From Scenedesmus sp. PABB004 (lineage: Eukaryota): 64,000 nt of DNA. The stretch lies in the NCBI GenBank assembly GCA_014905635.1, contig JABVCE010000005.1, positions 1,054,001 to 1,118,000 of the forward strand. Direction: 5' to 3'. Under the pieces are notes generated by a model that was not told the origin of the DNA, did not search any database, and saw only the letters and a program-made list of their open reading frames with translations. How positions within the stretch are numbered: the stretch's first letter is position 1; every line of letters starts with the position of its first letter. Position numbers and translations under genes: made by a program. Shown here one piece after another: positions 3,501-64,000 of this stretch.

Positions 3501-6500
3501 CGGCACGCGCCGGGCGCGCAGCTGGGCAAGCCGCGGCGGCCGCTGGAGGCGGCGCTGAACGAGCTGAAGACCCACAAGCACATGCTGCGACTCATGCCGC
3601 CCCTCTCGGCCGCGGCGGGCGCCGACGGCGGCCACGCCGGCGGCGGTGGCGACGCGGCGGCCGCGGCCGCCGCCGCGGCGACGGGCGACCGCGCCGCGGT
3701 CGCCGCGCTCGCGCCTGCGCGGTCCTGGGGCGCCGCCGCCGCGGCCGGCGGCCGGCAGCAGTCGCTGCTTGACCCTGCCGCGCTCGCGGCGGCGGGGGCG
3801 GCGGAGCAGCTGCGCCTGAAGCACGTCCCCGAGCTGCTGGCCAGGGAGTTCCGGCCCGCGCTGCCCGACGACGACGCGTGGCTGGACGAGGTGGTGTGGG
3901 ACCGCGACCAGGAGGCGCAGCGCGGCGTCGTCGCCCGCGCCGCCGCGGGCGACGACGCCGCGTCGGCGGCGCAGCCGCAGCCGCCGCCGGCGCAGCAGCA
4001 GCAGCCGCAGCAGCAGCAGGAGCAGCAGCAGCAGCAGACGCAGCAGACGCAGCAGCAGCAGCACGGCGGCGCGGCGGGCCAGCAGGTGCTGGCGCTCGTG
4101 CCGTCGTCCGCGCGCGGCGCGCGGCTGGGCGGGCGGCGTCGTCGGCGCCGGCGGGCGTGGGCGCGTGCTATGGGACCTGAACGACCCGCTCATGGTCTTT
4201 GAGGCGGCGCAGCCGGGCGCGTTTGCCGCCGCCGCGGCGGTGGTGCAGCAGGCGCCGCCCAAGGTGCGCGCGCGGGGGCGGCCGCGCGCGCGCGCGCGTC
4301 CTCGCGCGCGCGCGCCGCGCGCTCCCGCCCTCACCCCGCCGCCGCGCGCCCTGCCGCGCCCGCGCCCGCACCGCGCTCCCAGGCGGTGGTGCACCTCCCG
4401 CCGCACCTGCTGTCGGAGAGCGACCCGCTGCTGCGCGCGCTCGCGCCGCTGCACATCAGCGGCGACCACCTCTACGCGCTCAGCGAGCGCGGCGGCGGCC
4501 GCGCGACGGGCACGGGCAAGCACACGCGCATGGCGACCGACTTCCAGTTCAGCCTCATGCCAACCTTCCCCAAGGACGCCTTCACGCCGCAGTGGCACCG
4601 CCCGCGCGCGCGCCGCGCCGCGCGCCGCGCGCGCGCCGGCGCCGCGCGCGCGCGCGCCGGCCGCGCCGCGCCGCGCGCGCGCGCGCGCGCGCGCGCGCCG
4701 GCGCGCGGCGCCGCCCGCCGCCGCCGCGCCGCCGGCGCGCGGCGCAGGTACTGGTGGAGCGCGCCCAACCTCCTCTTCGCGCTCATGGGCCGCCAGGCGG
4801 AGCGCGACGCCAAGGGCGCGGGCCGGCCGCGCGGCGGGCCGCTCAAGTTTGAGGCGGTCAGCCTCACGCTGCGCCGCGGCAAGACCGCGACCGCGCCCGA
4901 CGGCAACGCAGACCTGGCGGAGGTCTGGCAGGTGCGGCACCGCCGCGCGCGCGCGCGCGCTGGGCCGCAGCCGCCGCCGCGGCGCCCGGCACGCCCCCGG
5001 CTCGCGCGGCGCGCGGCGCGTCCGCGCACGCGGCGGCGTGACGTGCGCCCGCCCGCCGTCCGGTCCAGGTCGTGTCGTCGAGCCGCACGTTCAAGGACGC
5101 CGCCGCGGCCGAAATGCCGCGCCTGTTTGGGCCGGGCCCCACCTACGAGCTCATGGGCGGCTTCGGGACCTGGCTGGAGCTCGACAGGCGCGCAGGGCCG
5201 CCCCCTCCCGCCGCGCGCCGCCGCGCGTAGCACACGCGCTGCCCCTGCGGCGGCTGTGGCGCCGCGCGGCCGCGCGCGCCGCCGCGCACGTGCCGGGCCT
5301 GACTGCCCGCGCCGCCCGCCGGCGTGGCGTCCGCGCAGCCCGCTGGCGTCGCTGGGGTTCAGCCCGGGCGCCAACTTCATGGTCCCCGTGTGGAGCGCGG
5401 TCGCGCCGCTGCGCACGGCCGCCGTCGGCGGCCTGCTGCCCGCGGACCTGCCCTGCCGGTGCGCGCCCGCGCGCTGCGCTGCGCCGCGCCGCGCCGCTCC
5501 GCGCGCCGCGCCGCTGCCCTGCCCCTTCTCCTGCGCCTCCTGCTGCATCCAACGCCTCCCGCCCGCTGCCCCCTCGCCCCGCCCGTCCGCGCCGGCCAGG
5601 CCGCCGGCGGCGTTCAAGACGCTCAAGTCGCTCAGCGCGGCGAGCCCGGGGCACGTGCTGCTGCTGGAGTACCTCGAGGAGCGCCCGATGCTGCTCCTGC
5701 AGCCCGGCATGGGCGTGCGGCTGACGACGTACTACCGGTGCGCGCGCCCCGCCGCGGCGGCACCGGCGGCACCTGCGGCACTCAGGGGGCCGCGGGGCTT
5801 GGCCTGACGCGCGCGTGCGCGCGCGGCGCAGGCGCAAGAACGAGGCCGACATGCACTACCAGGCGCTGCAGGCGGAGTACAGCGAGGGCCTCCTCGCGCG
5901 CCAGGCGCGGCGCCGCGGCACAGCACGTGCAGCCGCGCGCGCTGCGCCGTGCCGGCCCAGCAGCGCCCGCCCGCCGACGCCGCACCGCGCCTGACACCCC
6001 GCCGCCCCGCCGCGCGCCGCCGCAGGCGCTGCCGCTGACGAGCGCGGACCGCTTTGACGCGCGGCCGCCGTGGATGGTGGGCACGCCGCAGCTGCTCACG
6101 CCGGACGACCCCTCGCCCTTCTACGAGCTCGCGCCCATCCCGCCCGGGGAGATGCAGTTTGCCGTCGACACGCCCTGCTTCAGGCCCGGCGCCGCGCCCG
6201 CGCCCGCGCCCGCGCGCCGCCCCGTCCCGTGCCCGCGCCGACCCGCGCCCGACCACCGCGGCGCGCGTCCGGCAGCCGCGGCCGCCGCTGACACCGCGCG
6301 CGCGCGTCGCGCCCGCGCCCGCGGCGCGCAGGGCGCCCGCGGTGCCGCACGTGGGCAGCGCGAGCGACTTCCTGCTCGTGCGCATGCCCGCGGGCCAGCA
6401 CGCGCTGCGCGAGCTCACCGGCGCCGTGGCGGTGGGGCAGCAGCACCCCAGCCTCGCAGTCTGGCCGCCCATGAGCGCCGAGGCGCAGAACTACGAGCGC

Positions 6501-9500
6501 GCGCGCTTCAAGGCACGCGGCGCCGCGCCGCCCGACCGCACGCCCGCCGCGCCGCCGCGCCCCGGGCCCTCCTCCCCGCTCCCCGCCCGACCGCCGCGTC
6601 CGCCCCGCCCCCGCCCGCGCCGCGCGCGCCGTCGCCGCGCAGGCGCACGTCGTGCGCACGCTGCGGGCGCGCATGGACAAGCCCAACGTGAAGGCCGGCA
6701 AGGCCGTGGCGAGCGTGAGCCTCGCCGAGCTGCTGGCCGCGTTTGAGGGCATGTCCATCGCGACGCGCGAGGGCCTCAGCCGCCTGCTGCGCGAGGAGTG
6801 AGCCGCCGCGCCGCCGCGCCGCCGCGCGGGCGCGCGCGCGCGGCGGCCTGCCGCCCGGCCGCCGCGCCGACGCTGCCGCCGTCGCCTGCCGCCGCCGCGC
6901 CGCGCCGCAGCTGCGCGTGCATGCCGCTGCCGGACAAGCCCGACCACTGGGTGCTGTCGCCGGGCGCGAAGCTGCCGCTGGAGACGGACCTGCGCAAGGA
7001 GGTGCGGCCGCGCCGCGCTGCTCGAGCAGCCCCGCCCCGCGCCCAGCCCCGGCAGGCCCAGCACGTGCTGCAGCATGTGCCACGCGCGCCCCGACCGCCG
7101 CCCCTGCCCGGCGCGCGCACGCGCCGCCGCCGCTGCCCCTGCGCCCGCAGCTGTCGCCGGACCAGGCCATTCAATACGAGGCGCTGCTCGCGGGGCTGGG
7201 CCAGCGCATCGTGTGGGGCGTGGAGGCGGACCGTGTCGCCTCCGCGCTCGAGGCCGCGGGCGGGCCGACCTCGGCCGTGCTGCGCCTCGCGCTGGACATG
7301 CTGCTGCCAGACGAGGCCGGCCGCCAGGCCGCGGCCGCGATCGAGCAGTGCGTCCTGGTGCGTCGCCTCGCTCGGCTGCTCGAACACAGGCTTTGCGCGC
7401 CCGGGTCCCCCCCCCCGCCCACCCGTCTGCCACCGCCGCTGCGCCGCCGCCGCGCCCGCCGCAGAACCCGCCGTGGGCGCAGTCGGCCGCGTACCACGGC
7501 GCGCTGCGCGAGGGCCGCGCGCCGACGCCGCTCGTGGTCAAGGGCCGCGCCGACCCCACGGGCCGGGGGCGCGGCTTTGCGTACACGCGGGAGGACCCCA
7601 AGAAGAGCAAGGACGAGGCCGCGCCGCCGTCGGGGCTCAAGGCCGCCGCAGACGGCCAGATCACGGGTGCGTGCCTCTCTGCGCGCGCGCGTCCGCGCGC
7701 GCTCGTGGGCCCGGCGGCCGGGCCCGAGGGGCGGCCCGCGTGACGGCCGCCGCGGCCGCCGCGCAGGCACGGACGCGGACCTGCGGCGCCTGCCGTACAA
7801 GCGCGCGGGCGAGCTGCTCGTCACGCGGTTCAACATGGACCCCGTGGCCGTCACCAACCTCGCGCGCTGGGACCGCATCGACGCCATCCGCCGGTGCGCG
7901 CCCGCCGCCCGCGCCCGCGCCGCCGCCCGCGCCCGCGCCCGCCGCGCGCCTCCCTCGCTCCTCCCTCATCCGCCCCGGTCCGACCTCGCCCGCCGCCCGC
8001 GTCCGCCCCGCCCGGCCAGCGCGGTGCGCGACCCGCAGTTTGCTGCGATGGTCAACGCCGACCCCGAGCTGCGCGCGTACGTGCGCAACGTCAAGCTCAG
8101 CGTGGAGGACCAGAAGGCCAAGATGCGCGTCGCGGCGGCGCCCATCTTTGCGGCCCAGGCGCGCGCGCGCGCGCGCTGCTGGCGCGGTTTCAGCGTCGAC
8201 CCGCGGCACCCGCCGTTGCGGGGCCGGGTCGTCCCTGACACGCTGCGGGCGCGCGCCGCCGCCGCGTGCCGCAGATGAACGCGCTGCACGAGCCCTGGGG
8301 CGACGACGCGCTGAGCGAGGAGGCGTCCTGGGGCGCGAGCCCCGCGCTCGCGGCCGCCGCGGCGGCCGAGGCGGTCGCCGACACCGCGGCGTCGGGCGGC
8401 GTGGCCGCGCCGGCGGGCCTCGCGCGGCTGCTGCCCGGGCAGGAGATCGACCTGGGCGTCGCCTACCGCGGCACGGCCAAGGTGACGCGCGGCGGGCAGG
8501 GGGAGGGGCGGGCTGCCCGCTGCCCGCGCGCCGCCGCTGTGCCGCGCGCCCGCCCGCGCCTCGCTGACCGCGCCGCCGCCCCGCGCTCCGCGCCGCGCTG
8601 CACGCCGCGCCGCGCAGCCGCCTGTGCGCGGGCGCCAGGCGGTTGCGCTGCCGGGCGAGCGGCGCGTGCGGCGCGTGATCACGTACCGCACCGCCGGCGG
8701 CGGCATCGTGCGGCGCGAGCTCATCATCGGCGGGCGCGAGGACCTCACCGCGCTCAACGCGATGGCCCGCCGCAGCGACGGCTTCGGCGAGCAGCACAAC
8801 CCGCCCAAGTCTGGTGCGGCGCAGCTGCTGCCGCCGCCGCAGCCGCGCCGCGCGCGCGCGCGGTGCGGGCCGCGCCCGCCGCGCCCGCACGCCCGCCCAC
8901 GCGCCCGCCCGCCCGCCCACCCGCCGGCCGCGGCGCAGGCCAGCGCGCCCGCTACGCGCGCTCCGTGCCGCTGGGCGCGTCGTTCGTGCCCGTCGTGCGC
9001 AGCCAGGACGCGGAGCTGCCGCCGGAGCCGTCGGCCGCGCCGCCGCCGTCGGCGCGCGCGTGGGCGGCGTCGGGCAGCTACCCCACGCTGCAGGACGTCA
9101 CCGCCGCGGCCGCGGCGGCGGCGGGCGGCGGCTACGCGCCCGCGCCCGACGGCGCCTACGCCGCGCCGCCGGTGCCGCGCGCGCCCGGCCGGCCGGGGCG
9201 GCGGGCGCGGGCGCGGGCGCGGCCGCGCCGCCGACCCGGCCGCCGCGGCGGCGCGCGCGGCCGCGGCCGCCGCCGCGCGCGCCGCGGCGCTCGCCGCGGC
9301 GGCGGCCAAGAAGCGCAAGCGCGGCGGGCGGCGCCGCGCGGACGACTTTGACGGCAGCGACGAGGACTTTGACGTGCGCGCCGCGCCGCGCCGCGCCGCG
9401 CCACGCCGCGCGCTGGCCTCGCTGCCGCGCTCTCAAGACGCAGCCGGCCCGGCTGCTGCTCCGACGCCCCCTCTTCACCTCACCCCCCCCCCCCCCCCTT

Positions 9501-10838
9501 TCCCCGGCGCCGCTTGCTCCCCGCGCCGCCGCAGATGTCCGACCTGACCGACAGCGAGGCCGAGGCCGCAGCAATGGGCGAGAGTGACGACGACAGCCCC
9601 ACCGCCGCGCGCGCGCCGCGCGTCAAGCGCCCGCGCGCCGCGGCGGCGGGCGGCGGCGCCGACGGCGGCGGCGCGGCCGCGCCCGCCGCCGGCGCCGCGG
9701 CGGGCCCGCCCGACACGGCCCCCGGCGCGGCGGCCGACGCGTCGGCGCGCATGCGGGGCGCGCTGGAGGAGCTCAACTTCAGGCGCGGCGCACCGGCGCG
9801 GCGCGGGCGGCCTCCCTTCGCCCTCCCACCCCGGCCCGCCCCGCGCGCGCCGCCCGCGCTCACGCGCCGCCGCCGACCGGTCGTCGCCGCGCTCCGCCAG
9901 GTTTGCGCGCGCGCTGGAGGTGGTGATCCGGCACCAGGCGTCGCGCGCGCGGTTTGGCATGCTGAAGCACATCTTTGAGCGCCCCGTCAGCCTGCTGGTC
10001 GTGCCCGACTACGAGGCCTTCGTCCCGCCCGACCGCCAGATGTGGCTGCTGCGCATCAAGGAGCGGGTGAGGCGCCAGGCGTGCCTGCTGCGCTCGCACG
10101 CGGGCCGCGCGCGAGCCCTGCGCTGTGCGGCTGTACGCGCCGCAGCGGCCGACGCTGCGGCTCGCCCGCCGCCCGCCCACGACGCTCCCCCTCCCCCGCC
10201 CTGCCACGTGTCACCCCCGCCCGCCAGGTGCAGCGCTGCTTCTACGCCAGCTCGGCCGAGTTCCTGGCGGACGTGCAGGCCGTGGCCGACGCGGCGGCCG
10301 CATACAACACGCCCGGCGTCGGCGGGCGGCAGGCGACGCCGGCGCTCATCCCGCTCGCGGCCAGCCTGGTCGACGAGGCGCGCAAGGGCCTCGCTCAGCA
10401 GGCCGACCTCGCCTACTGGGAGCAGCGCGTCGCGGTGCGCTCGCGCGCGCCGCGCGCGCCGGCGGCGCCGGGGCCGCGGCGCACGCGCCGACCGCCCGGC
10501 GCCGCGCCGCGCCGCCGCCGCAGATCGAGCGCGTGCGGCAGAGCGGGCCCGAGGCGTTCGCGGGGCTGCTCGCGCGCGCGCTGCGCGACGCCGCGGCGCT
10601 CGGCGACGCGCCGCCGTGCTGGCGCTGGGTCGGGTGCGAGGCGTGCGCGCAGTGGCGCCTGCTGAGCGACGCGGCGGTGTACGAGATGGGCCTGCTGGCC
10701 GAGGACTCCAAGTTCTACTGCGAGGCCAACGCCGACCGCCCCGGCGGCGCGGGCTGCGCGGAGGCGCCCGAGTGGACCGACGCCGCCGGCGGCGGCGATG
10801 GCGGCGGCGGGGGGGAGGCGGAGGAGGCGGCGGGCTGA
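534..10838 (+). CDS. TAF1: Transcription initiation factor TFIID subunit 1 (about 25 exons): N-terminal TBP-binding motif, central TAF1 domain with ubiquitin-like insert, one bromodomain, C-terminal CW-type zinc finger
   Basis: Spliced peptides: GGILWGNL...EADYLD (534-635), LWDLNDPLMVFE (~4168), WHRPRA, VLLLEYLEERPMLLLQPGMGVRLTTYYR (5655-5737), DFLLVR, ADPTGRGRGFAY (~7550), GTDADLRRL, RWDRIDAIR, bromodomain (9900-10430, ...PDY...AYN), WVGCEACAQWR (~10626). Stop TGA ends at 10838. A few frameshifts occur in low-complexity parts. Confidence 0.92.
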
Positions 10839-11319
10839 GCGGCCGCGCTCGGGGTCGCGCGGGGGGGGGGGGGGGTGCTGCTCGGGGCGCGGCGGCGCGC
10901 TGAAACAACGCGCGCTCGCTGGTTGCAAGAACTCGCACCGGCAACGCCCCGACGGCCCCGGGCGTGGGCTCCCGAGCACGCGCAGCCGCCGCCCAGCCGC
11001 AGGCGCTGGCCGCCCTTCCCGTACGCCCCGCCCCTCTCGCCTGCGCGCGCGGCGCTGCGCAATCCGGTCCCAGCCCGCCCGCGGCCTGCACGGGGTCCGC
11101 GGCAGCAGTGCGCCCCGCCCCCTGCCCCGCCTGCCTAGCGCCCCGCCCCGCCCCGGCCCCGCCAATGCGCCCCAAAAAAACGAGCCGCCGCGCCGCGCCC
11201 GCGCTGCCGCTGCAGCGCGCGCTGCGCCGGCGCCGCCCCCGCCGCGCCGCGCCGCCGCCCGCCGCCCGCCGCCGGCGCCGCGCCGCCGCCGGCGCGGCGG
11301 CGGCGCCGGCGGCGGACAC

Positions 11320-14300
11320 TCAGAACCTGAAGCTCGACTCGACCTCCATGGCCCAGTGGAACTTGGTGAGGAGGGACTTGTTGAAGATCTTCTCCATGGG
11401 CACCTCGTTGCGCTTGCACCACGCGATGGTGATGCGCGGGTCCATGTAGTTGATCTTGCTCGTTCCCAGCGCGACCGTCTTGAGCTCCTCGCGCGACGCC
11501 GCCGAGATCTCGGCCTTGGCCAGCGCGAGGCGCTTGCGCTCGAGCTTGGCCGACACGCTGCGCCGCGCGTCGGCGCGGGAGGCGGGCGCGCGGGAGGCGG
11601 CGCGCGGTGGGCGGCGGGCGCGCGGCAGCGCGGGCGCGTGTGCGCGGCCCGCGGGCGGGCCTCACCTGTCTGTGTTGCCCTTGCCGCTCTTGAACTCCTT
11701 CTCGAGCGCCTTGATGTCGTCCCGCATGGCCGACAGCTTCTCCTCGACCTTGGCCATCGACGCCTCGTGCGTCTTGGGCACGCTGCGCTGGTGGTTGCAC
11801 AGGATCGCGACCTGCGGCGCGGCGCGCGGCGCGCGCGGGGGCTCGCACCGCGCCCTCTCCGCCCCGTGTGCCACGCGCCCTCCGCGCCCCGCCGCCGCCG
11901 CGCGCCCCGCCGCGCCCTCCACCGAGACCCGCCGCGACCCGCCGCGCCGCGCCCCGCCGCCTCGCACCTCCTTGTTGGCGCGGTCGTAGTCTGCCTTCTT
12001 CTCCTCCAGCGTGCGCTCCGCGTAGGCGGGGCCGTCGCGGGCCTCCATCTCGGCGAGCAGCCGGTCGAGCGTGATGGACGCGTTGTACGTGCGGAACACC
12101 TGCCGGCGGCGGCGGTGGTGGCGGGAAGGGGGGGGGGGGCGGCGCGGCGCGTGTGTTGATTGTGTGCGCGTGTTTGGTGTGTGTGCGTGCATTTGCTGCG
12201 TGCGTGCGTGGCTGTGCGGGTGCGGGCGCTGGTGCGGGTGTGAACGGGAGGTGCTGTTCGGTGCTCGCGCGCGGGCAGAGGGGCAGGCGACGGGCGCGCG
12301 GCGGCGCGGCGGGGCGCCACACGCTGGCGGCTGGGCGCCCCCGCACCTTGACGCTGAGTCCGTCCATGAGGCTTTTGAGCTCCTTGTTGAGGTCGGTCGC
12401 GTCAAAGGTGTCAAACAGCATGTCGCGCGGGCCCTTGCCTGACCCGCGGCGGCGGCAGCGGCACACGCGGTGAGTGCGGGCCGCGCGACCGCCGCGCGCC
12501 GTCGCCTCCACCCCGCGCGCCCGCCCCGCGCCGCCCGCGCCCGCGTGTGCGCCTGCCGCACTCACGCTTGCCCTTGGCGTCGGTGCGCACAAAGGTCGCG
12601 ACCGCGCGATAGACCTTGGGCTCCACGTCGACCGTGTTCTCGTACTTGATGCTGTCCTTGCCCAGGAAGTCAAAGCGGATGTGGTTGGGCGGCACGCACT
12701 CGACGTTCTCGACCTGGCCGTGTGGGGCGCGGCGGCGTGGACGAACGTGGGCGGGGCAGGGCAGAGGCGGCGGCAGAGGCGCCGGCAGAGGCGGCGGCAG
12801 CGGCGGCGGCGGCGGCGGAGGCGCGGCAGCGGACCTTGAGCGTGCAGCAGCCCACGGTGTCGGCCTCGTCCTCGTCCTTCTCGTGCCCCGCGCGCAGCGC
12901 GAGCTTGTCCAGGAAGTACACGGCGACAGCCATCTGGCGGGCCGGCGCGCAGGCGGGCGGCCAGGCGGGCGGGTCAGCGGGCGGGTGAGCTGCGCGGCGC
13001 GGCGCGGGAGGGCGTGCGCTGCGGCGGCGCGCGCTCGCCCCGCGGGCGCGCTCGCCTGCTGGCGGCGCAGGTCCTTGGAGTCCCAGTCGCGCGTGTAGTT
13101 GGCCCGGATCTTGTCGATGTGCAGCTTGAGCTTGCGCGCCTTTTCGTACTTCTGGAGGTCGCTGCTGCTCTTGAACGCGCTGTTCGCGCTCAGCCACACG
13201 TACCTGCGCCACGCGCGCGAGCGCGCGCGCGCGCAGTGAGCTCGCGCAGCGCGCGGGCGCAGCGGGCGGGCGCGCGGGCGGGCGCCGCCGCGCCGCCGCG
13301 CCGCCGCCGGTGGGCGCTGCCGGCGCACTTGTACTCCTTGGGGTTGACTGTGTCCTTCCAGAACGCGAGCCACGTGACCGTGTTGTCGTGCCGCACCTCC
13401 TTCCAGCGCTGCCCCGGGTACGGGTGCTCCGGCACGGGCGCGCCGGGGCCTGCGCGCGCGCGCGCGCGCGGGGGCACGCGCGCGTGAGCGGCGCCGCGCG
13501 GCGCGGCGCCGGCCGCCTGCCTCGCCGCGCTGCCGCCGCGCCGCTGCCGCGCTGCCGCTGCGTACGCGCGTATCGCGCACCGATGTTGATGGTGATGTCC
13601 CGCGGGAAGACCCGCGACTTGACGCGGCCCATCTTGGGGTGCTCGCCGCGCCCCCGGAACAGGCTCGGCGGCTCCACCCGGAAGTTGCCCACCTGGCGTT
13701 GCGCAGCGGCGGCGGCGGCGCGTGGGCGCCGCCCGCCGGCCCAGCACTGCGCGCCGCGCGCGGCAGCCGCCGCCCCCCCCCCCCCCCCCGCGCTGCCGGC
13801 GCCGCGGCCTGCGCGCCTGCTCCTGGCGGCCGTCGACCATGGCGTACTTAAACTTGGCCTCCGCCGCGTCCTTCTCGGCCTTCAGCGCCGCCTTGGCCTG
13901 AGGCGCGGCGCGCCGCCGGCAGCGCGCGCGCGGCTCAGCGCGCGGCACGGCGCCGCTGGCTCCGCCGCGCCGCCGCCGCCGCCGCGGGCTCGCCGCTGGG
14001 CTCGCCGCTGCCGCGACGCCGCCAGGCTGGCTGCCGCCGCTGGGCTCGCAGCGGCGCGCGCCAACCGCCGCGGCCAACCGCCGCAACCGCCGCGCCGCGC
14101 CGCGCCGCACCTCCTTGCTGAGCGCCTTCTTGGCCTCGCGCTCTGCGATGAGGTGGTCGTAGATGGGCGTGAAGTCGCACTTGTCGAGCGACTTGATGGC
14201 GTGGCCCTTGCCGAGCACGTCGCGGAAGCCCTCCCAGAAGTTGGCCAGGAACGTGGGCTTGGCCATGTAGTCGGTCTCCTTCATGATCGCAAACATGCTC

Positions 14301-14432
14301 GCGACCTCCTCCTGCTCCGGCGTCAGCTCCACGGGCTTGCCGTCGTAGAGCATCTTGACGCCGTGCGGCGCGTACTCGGGCGGGAAGAGCACGCCCGCGT
14401 GCTCGAGCGTGCGCCACTTCTGCTCGCCGCGC

Positions 14433-14469
<37 letters not shown>

Positions 14470-14839
14470 GGCTGCGCGACGCCGACTCGCCTCGCTGCCG
14501 CTTGGGCGTGGAGCGGCGCGCGGCGGGGGCGGCCTTGCGCTTCTGGCCCGGCCGCGCCCGCTGGCTCAGCGGCACGTCGTCCTCGCTGTCGCTGCTGCCC
14601 CCGCTGGCGCTGGAGTCGTCGTCCTCGTCGTCCTCGTCGTCGCCGAGGCCGCTGCTGCTCCGCCCGCTGCGCCCAGCGCTGCTGGGCGTGGCCGCGCTGC
14701 GCGGCCGAGCTGCTGCCGGCCGCGCGCCGGCCGCCCGAGGCGCGCCGTTGGCCGAGGCCGGCGCGGCGGGAGGCTTGGCTGCCACCGCCGTCGCGCGCTG
14801 GGCCAGCGGGACGTCATCGTCGCTGTCGCTGCTCGACAT
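11320..14839 (-). CDS. TOP1: DNA topoisomerase I (type IB), 11 exons
   Basis: [115 protein letters not shown] and the catalytic [11 protein letters not shown]. Ten introns with clean donors and acceptors. Confidence 0.97.
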
Positions 14840-15395
14840 TCTCGCCGGTTGATGGGCCCCCGCCCACGCCCCGGCAGGCCACGGTCGCGGCCCGGGCTGC
14901 TCGGCCCCAGCTCGGCAGGGGCGCGGCGCAGGCGCGAGGCGCGCAGGAGTGGCGGGGCGGAGCCGCGGCGGCGCGTGCAAGGGCGGCGCAGCAGCGGCCG
15001 CGGCCCCGTCACGCCGAGCGGCGGTTCTGCGGACGCGTGCGACGTCGGTCACCCGAGGCGCGTCCCAGGCGGCCGCCTCGCCCAGTGCGAGGGGCCTGTC
15101 GTCGCGGTCTCGCGCGCGCACGCCGGCAGCTCCCGCGCGACCGCCCGCCGGCCCGCACCGCGCTGCGCGGGCGCTGCTGCCCGCCCTCGCCGCGCGGGGC
15201 GCGCCCCGCTCTCTCGTGCACCCTCCCCAACCAGCAGTCCCGTCCCCCAACCGCTGCCGTCGCCTGCCGCTCGCGGGGCGCGCCGAATGTGCGCCGCGCC
15301 GCCGCCGCGCCTGCCGCTGCTGCCGCCGCTGCTGCCGCCGCTGCTGCCGCTGCAGGAGCGCCGCATGTGCTGCTGCTGCGTCACTCTCTGGTGCG

Positions 15396-16033
15396 TCACT
15401 CGGTGAGGATGCCCAGGATGTCCTCGTCCCGGAAGAGGAAGACCCTGCGCCCGGCGGCAGGCAGCGGGCAGGGGCAGCAGCGGGACAGCAGCGGAGGGCG
15501 GAGGCGGCGGGGCGGTCGGTCGGTGCCGCGGCGGGGGCTGCGGCTGCCCTGCGGCTGCGGCACCGCATGCGGCGCGGCCGCGCCGGCGGCGCGTGCCGTG
15601 CGCCGCGCCGTGGCCGCCGGCGCCGCCGCTGCTGCTGCTCGCCGCGCGTTTGGGGCCGGCGCGCGCTGCCGCCCGCCCGGCGCGCGGCGCGCTCACTCCT
15701 TGTTGTCCAGCTTCACTAGGGCGCCGCCGTACTCGGGCAGCAGCACCTTGTCGCCCTCCTTGACGCTCACGGGGACGAGGTCTCCGTCCTTGGTGCGCCT
15801 GCCCGGCCCCACCGCGAGCACCACGCCCTCGTTCACCTGCCGCGGGCGCCCGCGTCAGGCGAACCGAACGCGGGCCGAGCCGACGCGCAGGGGCGCGCGG
15901 GGGCGGTGCATCGCGACCGCACCTTGGGCGCCGCGCTCTCCGGCAGCAGCACGCCGCCCGCGCTCTTGGTGGGCGCGACGACCTTCTCGATCAGCACCCG
16001 GTCCAGCAGCGGGATCAGGCGCCGCACGGCCAT
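15396..16033 (-). CDS. CPN10: 10 kDa chaperonin (GroES/HSP10), 3 exons
   Basis: [37 protein letters not shown] | [47 protein letters not shown] | [15 protein letters not shown]. Two GT-AG introns. Confidence 0.95.
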
Positions 16034-16768
16034 GGTGCAGGCGCGGGCAGCAGCAGCCGGCAGCAGCGGGGTGCGGTCGGGCGGCGTGGCGGGGTGCGGG
16101 CGCGCGGGGTGGCGGTGGGGACGCCTGTGAATGCGGAGGGCGGCCTGCGAGGGCGAGGGGCTGGGCGTGGCGCGGGGCCGGCGCGCGTCTCCAGGCCCTT
16201 CTGCTGCGCCGCCGCGGTCGCGGGGTGTGCGCGGTCCGCGGCGAAGCGGCGCTGCGAGCGGGCGGTGCACCATGCGCACGCCGGCAGAGGGAGAGCGGCG
16301 GGTGATGCACGCGCGCCGCGCGCCCGGCGAGCAGCGGCGCGGCCGGTGCCGCCGCGCGCGACACACCGAGCCGCGTGCGCCAGTCGCGGAGATCGCGTCA
16401 CAGCTGCACGTGGCTCAGCGAAGCAGGCCGGCCCGCCGAGCGCCGAGCGACCAGCCCCGAGCAGGCGCCGAGCCCCCGGCGCGCCGCGGCGGTGTCGGCG
16501 CGCGCTGCTGAACTCCGGCTGGCGCCGTCGCTACCGGCCGTGACGCGCCCCCGAAACTCGGGGAGTCACCGGTGGCAGCAGCAGCCGGCGGCTCAAAACC
16601 GCCGCTGCCATTCCCGCCGCCGATCTCGCTGCTGCTGTCGACCAGCTGCTCGACGAACGTCGACACCATCGCGCGCAGCATCACCGAGATATCTCGGGCG
16701 TTCAAGCGCCCACACCAGCAGCAGCAGCAGCAAAAAGTGACTGCCGCCAATCGCTGCGATCGGCCACG

Positions 16769-17490: not shown

Positions 17491-17550
<60 letters not shown>

Positions 17551-19499: not shown

Positions 19500-32399
<12,900 letters not shown>

Positions 32400-33796: not shown

Positions 33797-34162
33797 GCTG
33801 GCGCGGCCGCCGGGGGCGCCGGGGCGCGGCCTGGGGCGGGGGAGGGGCTGGAGATTGCTGGGGGGGGGGGGGGCAGGCGCGGGCGGGTCCGGCGAGAAGG
33901 GCGCCTGCTTGGAGGCTGCGACGTTGGATCGTGGCCGGGAGCGACAGTGGAAGGGCACCGGGGCGGCCTGACGGGCGCCAGGGCTCGCAGCAGGGCGCAA
34001 GGGCCTTTAGGCCCTCGTGGCGCGCGCGCCCGGCCGCCCGCGCGCGCCGGCGCGCTCACACCGCTCCACCCCGCCCCCTCCCGCCCGCGCCGCGCCGTCC
34101 CGCGCCTCCCGCCGGCCTGCTCCCCTCGCCTGCTCGCCCCCCCCCCCCCCCCGCCCGCAGCC

Positions 34163-35115
<953 letters not shown>

Positions 35116-37694: not shown

Positions 37695-39093
37695 ATGGCG
37701 GCGTGGCGCGCCGGAGCGTTCCTGCTCAAAGGCCTGAACGCCTTCACGGCCGCGGGCTACGAGCGAGCGGCTGCGCGCTTTGACAACTCTTGCATGCAGT
37801 CGTCCCTGGCGGGCCGCGTCTGCATCGTTACGGGCGCCAACAGCGGGTGGGCTGCGCTGCCTGCCAGGCGCTGGCGCCGCCGCCGGCCCGCCGACCTGCC
37901 GCCCGCCCACCCGCCCTCGTGCAGGCTGGGCCTGACCACCAGCCACGAGCTGGCGCGGCGGGGCGCGACGCTGTGGATGTTGTGCCGAGATGAGGCGCGC
38001 GGCGCGGCGGCGGTCGCGGCGGTCGTCGCGGAGAGCGGCAACCAGGACGTCCATCTGGCGGTGTGCGACATCAGCAGCCTCGCCTCGATCGCGGCGTTTG
38101 CGGCGCGCTGGGGCGACCGGCCCTGCCACGTCCTGGTCAACAATGCGGGCGTGCTCGTGAGACGCGCCCGCGCGGCGGCCGGCCCGCAGGGCGGCGCGCC
38201 CCGACGCGGCCGGCGGCAGCTCACACGCGCGCGCCGCGCGCGCGCCGCAGCTCAACGAGCGCGGCACGACGGCGGAGGGCTTTGAGGCGTCGTTTGCGAC
38301 CAACAGCCTCGGCACCGCCGCGCTGACGGCGCGGCTGCTGCCCGCGCTGCGCGCCGGCGCGCCGTCGCGCGTCATCACCGTCTCCTCTGGCGGCATGTAC
38401 ACCGGTGTGGGCACGGCGCGCGCGGGCGGCGGCTGGCTGCAGCGCGCGCGCCCCTGACCCCGGCACTCACATGCGCGCGCGTGCGCCGCCGCCGCCGCCG
38501 CGGCCGCCGCCGGCGCAGCCAAGCTGCACCCCGACGACTTTGACGGCGCCGGCATCACGCCCTGGGATGGGTCTGTCGCGTACGCGCGCGACAAGCGGCG
38601 CCAGGTGGCATTGACGGAACACCTCGCCGCGGCGGAGGCCGCGCAGGGCGTGCTGTTCGTGTCGATGCACCCCGGCTGGGCCGACACGGAGGGCGTGCGC
38701 ACCAGCATCCCCGCCTTCCACAAGGCGCTCGAGGGCCGGCTGCGCAGCCCAGCGCAGGGGGCCGACACCATCGTGTGGCTCGCGCTCGAGGCGCGCGCCG
38801 CGCGCCGCCGCCGGTCGTCGCGCGCTCGCGTCGTCCGGCTGCACTCCTCTCACACGCACCCGATGCACCCGCAGGACGCGGCCAAGCTGCAGCCGGGCGC
38901 CTTCTACCTCGACCGGGCTCCCCAGGCAAAGCACCTGCTGCTCGGGGGCACGGGCTACAGCGCAGCGGACGCAGCGGAGCTCTGGAAGAGGCTGACGCAG
39001 CTGGCGGGGCTCGACGAGCGCGGAGGCGCCGAGGCAGCCGCGGCCGGCGGCGGCGGCGTGACGGCTGGCGCGGACAGGGTCGCCGCCTCATGA
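37695..39093 (+). CDS. Short-chain dehydrogenase/reductase, DHRS12-like, 5 exons
   Basis: GRVCIVTGANSG|LGL (TGxxxGxG), VLVNNAGVL, RVITVSSGGMYT, AYARDKRRQV (YxxxK) and SMHPGWADTEGVRTS. Confidence 0.88.
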
Positions 39094-39147: not shown

Positions 39148-42100
39148 CTACCGCCCCACCGGCGCGGCTGCTGCCGGCTCCGCCGCCGCCGCGGCCGCGG
39201 GCTGCGCGGCCTCGGCCTCCCCCGCCGGCGGCCACGCCGCCCCGCCCAGCGCGGCCTGCACGTCGGGCGACATCGCGCCGGGGATGCTGTGCTGGCGCAG
39301 CACGTCGGCCGTGCCGGCGACCGCCTGGCGGCGGTCAAGAATGATTGTTTCGCTGCGGCGGCGGGCGTGCGCAGCCGTGAGCAGGGTGTGCGCGTCCGCG
39401 GCTGCAGCGCGGCGCGCAGCCCGCCCCCCGCGAGGCCTGCGAGCGTCCCCTCCCTCACCACCACACACACATACCTGTACTCGCAATCGAAGCGCATGTG
39501 CTCGTCGCCGCAGGCCGCCACAAGCTGCGCGAGGTGCGCCAGGTTGAGGAGCGGCGTGCCGTTGAACGCTATCACCTGGCGACGCGCGGCGCGCGGACGT
39601 GCGGACACGCGTGAGCCGCTCCTCGGCGGCACTCCCCCGGGGGGGGGGGGGGGGGGGGCGCGGCGCGGCCGGCAGCAGTTCAGATTGCCCCGCGCCGCGG
39701 TGCGCCGCCGCGCCTGGACGTTTGACCAGTCCTCGTATCCGAGCGTCGCGTCGTGCGCGAGCACCTGGCCGAGCAGCACCACCTCCTGCCCCGCCGAGTC
39801 GGGCAGGCCGTGGTAGAGGCGCTCGAGCAGCTTGACCGGCGCGTCGCTCATCCACTCCGCCCCAAACTCGCTCTCCAGGTAGGGCTCGCACAGGCTGGTG
39901 AAGACCAGCCCGCTGACCACGAGGTACGAGGGGTCGCGGTTGCTCAGGTGCGGCGGCACGAGCACGCCCGGGCGCGAGAGCCTGCGCCGCGCGACCGGCC
40001 GGCGGCGGCGGCGGCGTGGGGAGAGAGCGCGCGGGGCGGCGGCCGCGCGCGCGCTGCTGCAGGCGGCGTGAGGGCCAGCGCGCGGCACGCGGCGCGGTGC
40101 GGCGTGTGGTGCGCTCACGTGACGTCGAGCGCGCGCAGCTCGCCGGCGCGCAGCACCTCGAGCCGCGCGCTGTCGCCGACAAACTTGTTGCTAATGAGGT
40201 AGCTGAAGGAGATGCGCTCGCCGGTGCTGCGCGCGGGTTCAATCACACGCAGCGCAGCAGGGGGCAGGCGGCGGGCGCGGCGGCGGCCGCGGTGCGGGGT
40301 CGGGGCGCGCGCGCGCACGTGGCGGCGCGGCGCTGCGCCCGCGGAGGCGTGCGGGCGGTGCGCGGGGCGCGCACCGGAACGGCACGGTGCCGTCGCAGGC
40401 GATGGCCTGGCCGTCAAAGCTGAGCAGCACGTCGTCCGCCGCGAGCGCCGCGGCGGCCGCGGAAGTCGGGTTGACGCGGCGGATGAGCACGCCTGGCGGG
40501 GAGGGAGCAACGGGGGGCGGCACACGCGCGCGCGTGTGGGCCGCCCCGCGCGCCGCGCGCCGCGCGCCGCCGCTTGCACACCGCGCGCGCCGCGCGCACC
40601 CTTCTGCCCCGGCGCCATGCCGTACGCGGCGCGCAGCGGCGCGCTCTCCATGCGCTGCCACTGGATGCCGAGCGCCGGGAAGCCGGTGAAGGCGCCGTGG
40701 GTCATGTAGTCCTTGAGGAAGTGGCTCACCACGCTCGTGGGGATGACGTAGCCCACGTTCTCGACGTCGCTCCCGCTCAGGCCCTGGAACGCGATGCCCA
40801 CGCACTGCCCGCGCTTGTTGAACACGGGGCCGCCAGAGTTGCCGCCGTTGATCGCTGCACGCGGCGCGGCGCGGCGCGGCACCATGGCGGGCGGCGCGGC
40901 GCGGCGCGGCACCATGGCGGGTGAGGGCTCAGCGCGGCGGCGGCGCGGCGGCGGCGGCGCGGCGGCCCGGCGGAGTGGGGCGCGGCGCGGCGCGGCAAAC
41001 CCACCGGCGTCGATCTGCACGCCCAGCAGGTCCATCGCGCCGTGGCTGTACTCGGTGACCTCGATGCGGCTCACCACGCCCACGGTCACGCTGATGGTGT
41101 CACCGCCTGCGCGGCCGGGCGGCGCGGGGCGGCGGCGGCGTCGGCGCGCTGCGCGGAAGCTCGCCGGCCCGCCCAGCGCCGCGCGCCGCGGCGCGCACCG
41201 ATCGGGTAGCCGACGACCGCGACCGTGTCCTGCAGCCTGCAGGACGGGCGGCGGCGGCGGCGGCGGCGCGCACTCAGCCCGCCGCGCCGCCGCGCGCGGC
41301 CCCCTCGCGCCGGCGCGGCCGCGGGCCCGCCCCGGCCGGCGCCCGCGCGCGCGCGCGCACGCGCACCGCGGCAGCGGGCCGAACTCGAGCGGCGCGACGC
41401 CCTCCCAGAACGCGGCGTCGTCGACGGTCAGCAGCGCGATGTCGCAGTCCACGCCGAGCGCGAGCACGCGGGCCAGGAACTTCTGGTCGTCCCCGCGGCG
41501 CTTGACCTTGATCTGCAGCCCGGGCGCGCGGGGGGGGGGGGGTGGAGGGCAGGGCAGGGCGCGCGGGGCGGCAGGTGGTGGCGGCGGTGAGCGCTGGCGC
41601 CCGGGCGCGCCGGGCGGCGGGTGCCCTGCCGCTGCCTCGGCCTGTCTGCCTGGCACGCTGCGGCGCGGGTTCCCCCCCCCCCCTTGCCCCTCGCGCCGCG
41701 CCGCGCCGCGCCTGCGTGTGGTAGTCGACGCTGTGCGCGTTGGTGAGCAGCCAGCGCTCGCCGCGCGCGCCGGCGACGATGAAGCCGGTGCTGGTGGACG
41801 TGAACTGGCGCTTGCGCTGCCACGGCAGGCTGTAGTTGGGCTCCGTGTGCACGCAGTGCACCTTGACGACTGCGTCCATGTACGGCGCCTGTGGCGGGGC
41901 CCCCAGCGGCGAACGTCGCGGCCGCGGCAGGCGCCGGGCAGCCCGCGCGCGCTGGCGGCAGGCGCAGCGGCCGGTCAGCTGGCGCGGCCGGGCAGCGGCC
42001 GGGCGCGGGAGGCGCACCAGGAAGTTGTCCTCGTCATCGTCGTCGTCGCCAAACTCCTCGTCCTCCAGCAGGTGCACCGCCGCCGGCGCGGCCGCGGCCT

Positions 42101-49845: not shown

Positions 49846-50096
49846 GTGAGCCGGGGGGAGCGGGCTGGGGGCTGCGGGGGCTGCGGGGGCTGCGGGCCGC
49901 GGGGCGAACGCCCCCGAGGGGCTGACCGCGCCCGAGCCTGGGGACGCGCGCGTGCTGCGTGCTGCATGTTGTTGCGCGCGCGGCGCTGGGAGAGCCGCGC
50001 CGACCGAGCGCTCCGTGCCGCTCGCGGGCTGCGCTGGGGAGCACTGACAGACTGCGTGCGTGCGCGGGAGTAAACTGTCGCGTTGCCTGCCGCTGC

Positions 50097-52178: not shown

Positions 52179-56071
<3,893 letters not shown>

Positions 56072-56361
56072 GGTGGCGACCAGGGGGGCGGGGAAGTGGC
56101 GTCGGGACTGACGTCGGACGCGGCGGCCCGCATGTGGTGGCGCAGCGACGAGCGACGCTGACGCTGACGAACGACGGTCGTCGCCGCTCATGTCACCCGG
56201 CCCGCCCGCCGGCGCCCCACACGACCGGCTGCACCGCATCTGACGCACCCCAACGCGGTCGCGCCCGCAGGAAGCAGAAGCGGCAGCAGCACAGCAGCAG
56301 CAGCGGCGCGCGAGCAGCGGCGCGCGGCGTGGTGCCCGTGGCGCGCCGGGAAGGCGCCGCC

Positions 56362-61108
<4,747 letters not shown>

Positions 61109-61216
61109 CGATGTCAGCGCCGGGCAGCGCCCGGCAGCTGCACTGGCGCGGCGCGGCGCGGTGTGCGCGCCAGGCGCCAGGGGCGGCGAGCGGCGGCGGC
61201 GGGTCGCGCGCGTGCG

Positions 61217-61221
61217 TTACA
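61217..61221 (-). promoter_or_regulatory. TGTAA polyadenylation signal for the minus-strand gene ending at 61473
   Basis: TTACA on the plus strand, about 250 nt downstream of that gene's stop. Confidence 0.55.
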
Positions 61222-61472
61222 GAGGCGCTGCGATGATGCGCCCGGCGCACGGCGGCGCCGGCGCGCGCTAGCTAGCGAGGGAAACAATGACGCGCGCGCG
61301 AGCGCGCGGCCGCTGGGACGGCCGGCGCGGCCGCTGGGACGGCCGGCGCGCTCGCGCCGCGCCCGCCGGGCGCGCGGTGCGGCGCGGTGTGTTGGTACAG
61401 CCGCCGCCAGCAGGACAGAGTGCACGCCTTCACACCCTGATTCAGCCCTCGGGAGGCGCCCCGCCGGGCGCG

Positions 61473-62772
61473 TCAGATCTCCAGCACGCCGTCGAGCTGC
61501 GTGATTTCAAACGACACGCCGCCGTAGTCGACGTCGACCGCGGTGCTGCCGCCGCCGCCGGCGGGGCCGCCGAGGTGCCTGCGCGCGCGGCGGGGGGCGC
61601 CCGCGGCGTGAGCGCCCGCGGCGCACGCGCCCGCGGCGCACGCCTTGCGGCCTCCTGCGCCTGACCGGCCCCGCGCCTGCCTGGCCCGCGGCGCCGCCGG
61701 TCTCACCCCTCGAGGTCAGGGAAGTGGGCTTCCATGTTCCACTTTGCCCGCAGCTGGAACGCGTCCGACACCTGCGCCTGCGCACGTGCGGCGCGCCGGC
61801 GGCGGCGCGCGTGGGCGCGGGCGGCGCAGCGGAGCAGCGGGGACGCGGCTGCCCGCCGCCGCCGCGGCGCGCACCCGCTCCTTGCGCTTCAGCCGCGGCC
61901 CGTCGCCCCACTTGGTCGTCAGCCTGCGCGCGGCGACGGCGGCGCGCTACCTCGGCGGCCGCCCCGCCGCCGCGCCCCGTCGCCGCCGCGCGCGCGCGCG
62001 CCCCGCCCCGCGCCGCGGCGGTCACCGGTAGTCGAGGCTCGGCGCGCCGCGGCGCCAGTTGTAGCCGAGCACAAACTGCAGGCGGAAGACGCTGAAGAAG
62101 ATCTTTGACGAATACAGCGCCGCCTGCCCCTGCTCCGGCACGACCAGCAGGCTGCGCACGTAGCGGTCCGCGCCGCGCAGCGCGCCCGGCTGCGGCTTGG
62201 CCTGCCGCGCGCCGCGGAGACGGGCGCGAGTCGGGGGCAGCCGTGGAGCGGCGGCCGTGCGAGCGAGCGGGGAGGGGGGGGGGGGGCGGCGGCGCCCGCG
62301 CCGCACCGTGAAGCGCCAGCGCGGCTGCGCGTGCCAGGGCCGGCTGTAGCAGGCGCACAGCGCGAGGCTGGGCAGCCTGCGCTCGGCGGCCGGCGGCGGC
62401 GGCGGCGCTCAGCGCACAGCGCGGGCGCTTTGCCCGCACGCGCGCGCGCCGCCGCCGCCGCCGCCCGCGCGCTGCCGCGCGTCATCGTGCTCACTTGTGC
62501 TTGAGCTTGAGCCGCAGCTCCGGCTCGCATTTGAACTGGTAGTTCTCCAGGATGCGCTCGATCAGCTCGTCTGCGGTTGGGAGGCGGCCGGCGGTTGAGG
62601 CAGCGCGGCGGCAGTCGGCGGACAGGCGAGCGGGAGCGCTGCGGCAGCGGCCGGCCGCGGCGGCGCCACGGTGGTGGTGGTGGCGGCGGCGGCGGCGTGC
62701 CTGTGTAGGCCTCGTCGCTGTACGGCTCGCCCTCGGACGACGGCGGCGCCTGCGAGCCCGCGAGCGCCAGCA

Positions 62773-62810
<38 letters not shown>

Positions 62811-62833
62811 GGCGGCGGCGTCGTGCGGCTCAT
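61473..62833 (-). CDS. Hypothetical protein rich in amphipathic beta strands, multi-exon
   Basis: Exons MSRTTPP..EPYSDEAYT | DELIERILENYQFKCEPELRLKLKHK | ..RYVRSLLVVPE..FFSVFRLQFVLGYNWRRGAPSLDYR | LTTKWGDGPRLKRKER | VQVSDAFQLRAKWNMEAHFPDLEG | ..VDVDYGGVSFEITQLDGVLEI*, separated by GT-AG introns. Confidence 0.65.
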
Positions 62834-63236
62834 GGCCCTGCCTGCCTGCCTGCGTCTGGGCGCTGGCTCAAAGGGCTGGCAGCGGCGGCGCGCGCAGCGG
62901 CGCGGCGACGGCGCGTGCGCAGCAGCGGCTGCGGCGGCGGCGCGCGCGCGGCGGCGATGCCTGGTGACTGGCGGGCTCGGTGCCTGGCGTCACGGGCAGG
63001 GGGGGGGAGTGGTGGGGCGGTGGGCGCAGCAGCAGCACGCTTGTTGTGTCGCAGGCCCAGGGCGCCGAAACTGAGCCGGTCGAGCTGCCGCAGCCCGATC
63101 AGCCCGATCAGCGCACGCCCACTCCGACGGCGTCACGCTGCGCCTCCGGGACCGCTGCCTGGATCCCTGCGCGCTCGCCGACGGCCGCAACCATCACCTC
63201 GACGGCCCGCGACCCGCGGAGCGGGCGCCCGCCGGG

Positions 63237-64000
63237 ATGAGCCACTCGGCGGAGGGCACCAGCGGGCGCGAGGACGCCGCGGCGGGAGCGACGGGCGGCG
63301 CGATGGCGGTGGACGCGGGGCACGCCCCGGCGCCCGGCACCACCCGCGTGCTGGCGCTCTACTGCGAGGCCCCGGACGAGGACGACATGGGGTTCGACCC
63401 CCCGGACGCCGCCAACATCAGCCACCTGATGCGGCGCCCCGATATGGAGGCACGGCGCGCCGCCGCCGCCGGCGCTGCTGCCCGCCAGCGCTGCTGCTCT
63501 GCCCGCCCGCGCGCAGCGGGGGCGGCGCCGCCCCGCCGCCGACGCCTGCCGCCCGCCCGGTCCCCCCAGGTTGAGGTGATGCGCGCGCCGACGCTGGAGG
63601 AGTTCTCGGCGCGCTGCGAGGCGTTCAAGCCGAGCTTTGTCTACGTCTGCGGCCCCGTGAGCAGCGCGGTCGACTCCATCAAGGGCACCGTGGGCCCCCT
63701 CACGCTCAGCGGTGCGCGCTGCCGCCGCCGCGCCGCCGCCGCCACCCTCACAGCGCGGGCGGCAGCGCGGGCGGCAGCCCGCGAGCTCGCGATCACGCCG
63801 CGCCGCGCCACGCCGCGCCGCGCCAGGCAACGTCGTGACGCCGGGCGAGCTGCTGACCGCGCTGGAGGGCTGCCCGCTGACCACGATCTACCTCGATGCG
63901 GCGGGCCAGGAGAAGGGTGCGCGGGGGACGCGCGCGCGCGCCGCGCAGCAGCAGGAGCGGCGGCAGGAGCGGCGGGGCAGCGCCAGGGGGCAGCGGCGGC
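63237..64000 (+). CDS. ARID4-like (AT-rich interactive domain protein) N-terminus, runs off window end
   Basis: TRVLALYC...PDME|VEVMRAPTLEEFSARCEAFKPSFVYVCGP and TTIYLDA resemble the N-terminal domain of plant ARID4 proteins. The ARID domain itself is not in the window. Confidence 0.5.
   Translation, partial: MSHSAEGTSGREDAAAGATGGAMAVDAGHAPAPGTTRVLALYCEAPDEDDMGFDPPDAANISHLMRRPDMEARRAAAAGAAARQRCCSARPRAAGAAPPRRRRLPPARSPQVEVMRAPTLEEFSARCEAFKPSFVYVCGPVSSAVDSIKGTVGPLTLSGARCRRRAAAATLTARAAARAAARELAITPRRATPRRARQRRDAGRAADRAGGLPADHDLPRCGGPGEGCAGDARARRAAAGAAAGAAGQRQGAAA

Follow-up and report, generated by a model that had tools for sequence, protein, structure and literature searches.

Sequence evidence confirms, with small corrections, that introns beginning with GC and ending with AG (GC-AG introns) are abundant in a 64-kb stretch of the genome of Scenedesmus sp. 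PABB004, a chlorophycean green alga (Sphaeropleales). The stretch analyzed (here, the window; 64,000 nucleotides [nt]) comprises positions 1,054,001 to 1,118,000 of contig JABVCE010000005.1 in GenBank assembly GCA_014905635.1, and coordinates are counted from its first letter. An initial annotation of the window had proposed that GC-AG introns make up 20 to 35% of the introns of several genes. In the four genes VPS34 (class III phosphatidylinositol 3-kinase), TOP1, TAF1, and POLQ, we modelled 64 introns, of which 38 have a GT donor, 17 have a GC donor, and 9 were left without a donor class. The GC-AG share is thus 31% of the resolved introns (17/55; 95% confidence interval, 19 to 45%), or 27% (17/64) if the remaining nine are all counted as GT, and GC-AG introns form a major class across these four genes of one 64-kb window.

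Splice junctions of VPS34 and TOP1

The window contains 80% G+C (76 to 82% in each 4-kb bin); GC is its commonest dinucleotide (21.8% of positions), whereas GT is rare (3.2%). Because GC is about seven times commoner than GT, a chance fit of a GC donor is a real risk, for which reason controls were included. The same composition speaks for the view that the GC donors are an artefact, either of gene-model over-fitting or of T-to-C assembly errors at the second intron position (+2), and that the true share is about 1 to 2%. We consider this highly improbable; at a 2% rate, at least 17 GC donors among 55 would be expected with a p of about 4e-16, and the junctions of VPS34 speak against it as well.

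A translated VPS34 exon matched a deposited PABB004 phosphatidylinositol 3-kinase (P0002, 876 amino acids) at 100%, and this protein maps letter for letter on 18 exons and 17 introns at 56362..61108 of the plus strand. For all 17 junctions, we enumerated the donor and acceptor shifts that yield the identical protein (3 to 9 per junction). At each junction a single shift gives an intron ending in AG, and the introns so defined are 11 GT-AG and 6 GC-AG. At the six GC junctions, the GC..AG solution is unique among 3 to 8 equivalent shifts each. At the observed dinucleotide frequencies, a GC..AG pair would be present by chance in all six shift families with a probability of about 5e-8, and G[T/C]..AG in all 17 families with a probability of about 3e-21. 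In alignments with homologues, among them the transcript-derived proteins P0012 and P0066 of other algae, none of the six GC junctions shows a gap, and the deposited PABB004 annotation already employs all six.

The six VPS34 GC-AG introns, each obtained from the deposited protein, the homologues, and the aligner described below, lie on the plus strand at 56422..56514 (93 nt; cag|GCGCGG, where the bar marks the exon-intron border), 56725..56847 (123 nt; aag|GCGCGC), 56992..57103 (112 nt; cag|GCGCGG), 58331..58440 (110 nt; cag|GCGCGT), 60566..60675 (110 nt; cag|GCGCGC), and 60835..60976 (142 nt; cag|GCGCGC, within MLKLQ|EKLRLD). All six of the donors proposed for the 17 introns of this gene are real, the only correction being a shift from 60567 to 60566. 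The two junctions that had been singled out as clear cases, FCVK|YRDL (56725-56847) and LKLQ|EKLRLD (60835-60976), are among the unique, gap-free solutions.

We also used our own spliced aligner, which places a protein profile on genomic DNA with selectable donor dinucleotides and an AG acceptor. With a VPS34 profile of ten homologues, from which P0002 was excluded, the score was 2010.8 with GT donors only and 2425.1 with GT and GC donors, and the latter run reproduced all 17 introns. With a TOP1 profile, likewise of ten homologues, the scores were 1959.0 and 2124.3. When all 16 donor dinucleotides were permitted, the aligner chose 11 GT, 6 GC, and no other donors in VPS34 and 8 GT, 2 GC, and no other donors in TOP1; under free choice, a GT or GC donor was therefore taken in 27 of 27 introns (19 GT and 8 GC), which is hard to reconcile with an artefact. 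The two TOP1 GC-AG introns, found in the aligner runs on the minus strand, are 13693..13816 (donor 13816, cag|GCGCGC) and 12934..13055 (donor 13055, cag|GCGAGC), and the earlier count of 2 among 10 TOP1 introns was reproduced. Protein searches did not return deposited PABB004 proteins for TOP1, TAF1, or POLQ, two of these searches being word-index searches limited to proteins of at most 2000 residues.

VPS34 relatives were met in metagenomes and in other algae. In a metagenome relative of 60% G+C (L003), a GT-AG intron (L003:1273-1355, cag|GTGAGG) at profile column 833 shares its column and phase with the VPS34 GC-AG intron 60835-60976; the relatives on L003 to L005 are partial, and just one shared intron position concerned a GC donor. 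Two metagenome contigs of 74% G+C carry relatives with 54% and 71% identity, respectively, in the best segment (L001:7387-10794 and L002:4437-8114). There, the unrestricted aligner returned decoy "introns" only, and the two genes look intron-poor or intronless. Two deposited VPS34 proteins carry insertions, one of 12 residues in P0007 (Scenedesmus sp. NREL 46B-D3), precisely at the first intron site (56421|56515), and one of 15 residues in P0011 (Chlamydomonas schloesseri), precisely at the last (60834|60977). Judged from the proteins, both insertions look like mis-modelled donors in these relatives, possibly unrecognised non-GT donors. Within PABB004 VPS34, the introns contain 88% G+C, which is above the exons; codon positions 1, 2, and 3 contain 72, 47.5, and 96% G+C, respectively, and A or T is nearly restricted to the first two. 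On the sense strand of this gene, AG|GCGCG occurs seven times (six donors, one site inside an intron, and none in exons), while its exons hold 34 copies of GCGCG alone.

GC donors in TAF1, POLQ, and other genes

The supply of homologues is poorer for the other two genes, the relatives of POLQ being distant and TAF1 having one useful homologue (P0391). With free donor choice, decoy dinucleotides (CG, CC, GG, and others) were chosen at poorly conserved junctions of both genes, so that homology alone is not decisive for them. In further runs, we added motifs for the donor and acceptor flanks that were learned from GT introns only and are blind to positions +1 and +2. The VPS34 and TOP1 results were unchanged by the addition; TAF1 (4,194-7,891) gave 6 GT, 4 GC, and 2 other donors, and POLQ gave 13 GT, 5 GC, and 7 other donors. 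The counts over four genes given above come from this flank-motif run.

Among the seven GC donors that had been proposed for TAF1 (plus strand), four are homology-stable. These belong to the introns 5188..5338 (cag|GCGCGC), 5905..6025 (cag|GCGCGG; formerly placed at 5906), 6184..6331 (cag|GCCCGG), and 6513..6642 (aag|GCACGC), which were stable in all P0391 aligner runs and in an ab initio parse (see below). Two others were called only by the parse and are candidates, namely, 8159..8274 (116 nt, not a multiple of three; cag|GCGCGC) and 9783..9900 (118 nt; cag|GCGCGG). The seventh, 10079, is doubtful. A GT donor at 10067 (GTGAGG) has the same frame and the same acceptor, 10227, and the parse prefers it; the resulting intron, 10067..10227, also agrees better with the usual spacing of the bromodomain. 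Pfam and PDB searches with both exon pieces flanking this junction gave no relevant anchor.

In POLQ (plus strand), all five GC donors of the initial annotation were regained with the flank motif, one being moved from 31826 to 31825. The introns 24089..24246 (cag|GCGCGC), 26679..26798 (cag|GCACGA), 30053..30178 (cag|GCGCGC), and 31825..31939 (cag|GCGCGC) were found in the aligner runs, and 32057..32183 (cag|GCGCGC), which interrupts the motif LLQ|VHDE, was found in the flank-motif run; without the flank motif, a CG decoy was taken at this junction instead. Among 19 claimed coordinates, 15 are supported by homology, and 3 of these (5906, 31826, and 60567) had been given one base off; 3 others are backed by ab initio models only, and 1 (10079) competes with the in-frame GT donor. 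The length of 13 of the 17 GC introns is not a multiple of three, so these are not read-through coding sequence. A U12-type donor is marked by an ATCCTT-like box; the GC donors read GC[G/A/C]CG[C/G], have the flank profile of the GT donors, and show no U12-type box.

The ab initio parser was trained in part on VPS34 and TOP1. In region-limited parses that admitted GC donors, it regained 17/17 introns in VPS34 and 10/10 in TOP1, whereas with GT only it broke VPS34 into four models and TOP1 into two. When a second donor class was added ab initio in four genes, GC was the best such class in each of them, with a gain of 468 nats.

Further GC donors had been proposed elsewhere, and those in the DBP2-like gene and the Deg protease gene are borne out at one junction each by the continuity of a Pfam profile. 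The flanking exons of the DBP2-like intron 54515..54702 (minus strand; donor 54702, cag|GCGCGC) abut at positions 137|138 of Pfam DEAD, and Pfam PDZ_3 is continuous (81|82-84) across the Deg intron 39576..39713 (minus strand; donor 39713, cag|GCGCGG). A second DBP2-like GC-AG intron, 55334..55416 (minus strand), has its donor, 55416, after CCG; it is placed by sequence and frames, with no in-frame GT donor, and its junction is presumably gap-free, given the conservation of this family. Another Deg intron, 41513..41711 (minus strand; donor 41711, cag|GCGCGG), is a candidate from the ab initio parse, and its junction has no Pfam profile anchor. In the SDR and ARID4-like genes (plus strand), the parser did pick the AG|GC donors expected from the initial annotation (38791..38874, 84 nt, gag|GCGCGC; 63450..63569, 120 nt, gag|GCACGG), but the evidence for these candidates is the parse, and either intron, with a length divisible by three, could also be read through in frame without a stop. 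At the Deg C terminus (39250-39480, minus strand), there are two readings: (i) an AT-rich, rare GTATGT donor near 39472 or (ii) read-through, with a (GT)n-like stretch that is partly aligned by Pfam PDZ_3 and then a GC donor without AG.

The donor signal and the exonic AG

The two donor classes carry the same intronic signal. GT donors (n = 34) have G at +3 in 31 cases, C at +4 in 28, and G at +5 in 33, and GC donors (n = 16) have these bases in 13, 15, and 16 cases, respectively. The consensus is (C)AG|GTGCG[C/G] for GT donors and CAG|GCGCG[C/G] for GC donors. The earlier remark that the GC donors lack the GCAAGT match is correct, since G[T/C]GCG is found in both classes, and positions +3 to +6 of the GC donors, which read GCG[CG], are no nearer to the consensus than those of the GT donors. 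The canonical donor 9-mer is CAG|GTAAGT. Mean matches to it, the 9-mer that fits the canonical U1 small nuclear RNA (snRNA), are 5.12/9 for GC donors and 5.21/9 for GT donors. GC and GT introns are also alike in length (125 versus 126 nt).

The classes differ in the exon end. An exonic AG precedes all 17 GC donors of the four genes (15 CAG and 2 AAG) but only 17 of the 38 GT donors (p = 4.5e-5, Fisher test). As an AG is favoured by the flank motif itself, the count was redone on the motif-free set, in which AG precedes 16/18 GC donors and 19/34 GT donors (p = 0.028) with two dubious calls kept; without these two short, odd calls, the GC count is 16/16 (p = 0.0009). Both the claim that nearly all GC donors follow an exonic AG and the suggestion of more reliance on it are thus upheld. 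Stated for the +2 base, there are 17 C and 17 T after an exonic AG and 0 C and 21 T elsewhere. Intron interiors contain 88 to 90% G+C, with a C:T ratio of 8.9, from which it follows that an unconstrained +2 would be mostly C. A count that needs no gene model points the same way. Over the 34,954 nt covered by oriented genes, the heptamer AGGTGCG is found 17 times in sense and 4 times in antisense (p = 0.007), and in the same sequence the 14 variants with dinucleotides other than GT and GC show no significant sense excess. About half of the sense-strand AGGCGCG heptamers in the oriented genes are non-donors.

These GC-AG introns are probably ordinary U2-type introns in which GC pressure has replaced T by C at +2, a change tolerated after an exonic (C/A)AG. 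The normal donor of this alga would be CAG|GTGCG, and the GC class would differ from it by the +2 base alone (CAG|GCGCG). GC-biased substitution would turn T into C at +2, and the resulting donors would survive only next to an exonic (C/A)AG, whose pairing with the 5' end of U1 snRNA would compensate for the missing pair at +2. Selection to keep T at +2 is still visible, weak after an exonic AG and strong otherwise. In this view, T would be nearly dispensable where U1 pairs with the whole exon end and indispensable elsewhere. As GC and GT donors are equal in matches to the canonical 9-mer, the loss of the +2 pair appears to be offset by the exon end. The data show where the introns lie, that they begin with GC and end with AG, that both classes share a flank motif, and that GC donors depend on AG; from these we infer splicing in the RNA, the U1 pairing logic, and the mutational cause.

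A retuned splicing machinery would be another explanation, with either a changed 5' end of U1, in which the base opposite +2 pairs with both C and U, or an altered U6, U1-C, LUC7, or PRP8. It would suit a GC share of 27 to 31%, far above the plant average of 1.2% (given in passages of PMC6310983), and the poor match of both donor classes to the canonical positions +3 to +6 (GCG[CG]); moreover, passages of PMC2483917 raise a change of snRNA as a possibility for the GTGCGTG donors of Ostreococcus. Yet free acceptance of C predicts GC donors in any exon context and a C:T ratio near 8.9 at +2, whereas GC was found in 0/21 donors without AG and in 17/34 with it, and equal total canonical complementarity in both classes is what an unchanged U1 predicts. 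We therefore regard retuning as unlikely, and an altered U1 is not required to explain the GC donors. The confinement of GC donors to AG contexts argues not only against a U1 that accepts C freely but also against errors of assembly, since T-to-C errors scattered at random over the GT donors would hit AG contexts in 17/17 cases with a p of about 1e-6.

It is also conceivable that the GC donors are regulated weak sites, selected for intron retention or alternative splicing and not a product of neutral drift. Accumulation of mammalian GC donors by selection for alternative splicing is proposed in the abstract of PMC2490688, and passages of PMC4028052 link the non-canonical donors of Emiliania huxleyi with frequent intron retention. 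In the window, by contrast, the GC introns lie in housekeeping genes at conserved junctions, 13/17 would shift the frame if retained, and they equal the GT introns in length and canonical match, which makes regulation very doubtful here.

Drift of +2 after an exonic AG, and the size of the GC class itself, must be weighed against several observations that count against them. (i) A single decoy class allowed in addition to GT regained 0 to 346 units of the VPS34 profile score, versus 414 for GC, and a false nearby site can let the aligner skip an intron; because decoy classes regain so much of the gain, the unrestricted run is the informative control. In the ab initio comparison, likewise, the best of 14 decoy classes gained 347 nats, versus the 468 of GC. 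(ii) Where conservation is poor, 9/64 junctions fell on decoy dinucleotides; stable motif-free calls in POLQ were limited to 4/9 in the polymerase part and 12/16 in the helicase part, and two stable motif-free GC calls in this gene appeared spurious. (iii) Parses of the whole window had to be rejected, both with GC donors, where over-fitting joined each strand into a single "gene" (245 introns on one strand, 270 on the other), and with GT only, where one model still had 238 introns; even in the region-limited parse, several GC calls without an exonic AG look false or unreliable. (iv) The AG rule is partly circular, given the flank motif, and in VPS34 and TOP1 alone the contrast is 8/8 GC versus 13/19 GT donors (p = 0.14). 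The DBP2-like donor 55416, outside the four-gene set, is the only well-placed exception, which makes the rule strong but not absolute. The sense excess of AGGCGCG is marginal (33 versus 20 in antisense; p = 0.098). (v) The pairing argument uses the canonical U1 5' end and not that of this alga, and the junctions are known here from DNA and protein homology. The decoys accepted at weak homology, the over-fitted parse, the in-frame GT alternative to donor 10079, and the false-looking ab initio calls without AG are what an artefact would lead one to expect, but they are outweighed by the free-choice result for VPS34 and TOP1, the single AG solution at each VPS34 junction, and the presence of the same junctions in the deposited annotation.

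Genomic setting, precedents, and significance

According to Pfam scans of stop-free frames and our own parses, the plus strand of the window carries TAF1 (~4.2-10.8 kb), POLQ (~22.8-32.4 kb), a calmodulin-like EF-hand gene (~34.2-35.1 kb; modelled 34161-35115), SDR (~37.7-39.1 kb), an ADP-ribosylglycohydrolase gene (~43-44.6 kb), a fasciclin-domain gene (about 48.6 kb), and VPS34 (56,362-61,108). The minus strand carries TOP1 (~11.3-15 kb), Cpn10 (~15.7-16.4 kb; modelled 15693-16124), the Deg protease gene (~39-42 kb), an IQ-motif gene (~50-51.6 kb), and the DEAD-box DBP2-like gene (~52.7-55.9 kb). GT donors begin all parsed introns of the calmodulin-like gene, one of which is probably a spurious split, as well as the single intron within the coding part of Cpn10. 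The best TAF1 homologue (P0391) and a TOP1 homologue (P0127) come from a common EukProt set with near-adjacent numbers (gene11322 and gene11328), and TAF1 and TOP1 may have remained neighbours in another alga as well. An Rfam scan of the 64-kb window gave no matches at all and so no snRNA gene.

The GC-AG introns of plants and animals resemble those of PABB004 in their GC..AG ends and U2-type context. In ordinary GC-AG introns, the remaining donor positions fit the consensus more closely and thereby compensate for the weak +2. Compensation lies in the exonic CAG in PABB004, as opposed to the intronic AAGT in plants and animals, and the frequency is 20 to 30 times that of plants and animals.

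The figure of about 1% that the initial annotation gave for most eukaryotes holds for plants, with the average cited above, but not for GC-rich protists. Passages of PMC4028052 report 56 to 60% GC donors in E. huxleyi, partly verified by reverse transcription-PCR and ascribed to a genome of 65% G+C, and passages of a preprint (bioRxiv 10.1101/2024.10.30.620910) report about 14 to 17% GC-AG introns in the pelagophytes Aureococcus and Pelagomonas, also ascribed to GC content. These ties to genome GC content provide a precedent for drift at +2; the PABB004 assembly has 39.8 Mb, 78.5% G+C, and 7,092 genes (according to a table in PMC12571836). As far as these passages go, E. huxleyi and the pelagophytes share with the PABB004 window a GC-rich genome, a large share of GC donors among U2-type introns, and the AG acceptor, and in all of them gene predictors that expect GT mis-model genes. 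They differ in lineage (a haptophyte and stramenopiles versus a chlorophycean green alga) and in the scale of the estimate, which covers whole genomes in the protists and four genes of one 64-kb window in PABB004. Although the window exceeds E. huxleyi in G+C (80% versus 65%), its share of GC donors is lower (about 30% versus the 56 to 60% of the passages cited). The exonic (C/A)AG requirement, measured here in PABB004, is not met with in those passages of the E. huxleyi and pelagophyte papers.

Two further groups offer partial likenesses. Passages of PMC2483917 (Irimia and Roy, 2008) describe a GTGCGTG donor consensus in Ostreococcus lucimarinus, a green alga that, like PABB004, has GCG at +3 to +5 of its GT donors and not the usual RAG; they describe GT-AG introns with strong signals in an intron-poor genome and mention no large GC-AG class. 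Dinoflagellates, for which a review (PMC5029490, in the passages concerned) lists G(C/A)-AG introns, share with PABB004 common non-GT donors and the AG acceptor, but they also use GA and other donors, whereas in PABB004 only GT and GC came out where homology is strong.

Literature searches on GC-AG introns in green algae or comparison lineages, and on strain PABB004, turned up no paper that reports such introns for Scenedesmus or for PABB004. Neither "GC-AG" nor "splice" occurs in PMC12571836, which names the strain, and the two papers naming both GC-AG and Scenedesmus are on cyanobacteria. A high GC-AG share is known from other GC-rich microbes and seems to be unreported for a green alga. It would be a long shot to see in PABB004 the first member of the Viridiplantae with nearly one-third GC-AG introns, in the boldest form through a changed U1 snRNA or U1-C contact that accepts C at +2, or at least a natural titration of exon-end pairing.

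Such a titration would tell how much exon-end pairing is required for a spliceosome to do without T at +2 (C:T of 17:17 versus 0:21). For annotation, gene finders limited to GT-AG would break or distort about a third of the junctions of this genome. For splicing biology, GC donors make up half of all donors after an exonic AG in the set of four genes, and the clean split between contexts allows the buffering of +2 by exon-end pairing to be treated quantitatively. As a counterpart in the green lineage to Emiliania and the pelagophytes, PABB004 raises the question of an independent origin of the same rule, and the case illustrates the extent to which a core splicing signal can be altered by GC-biased evolution.

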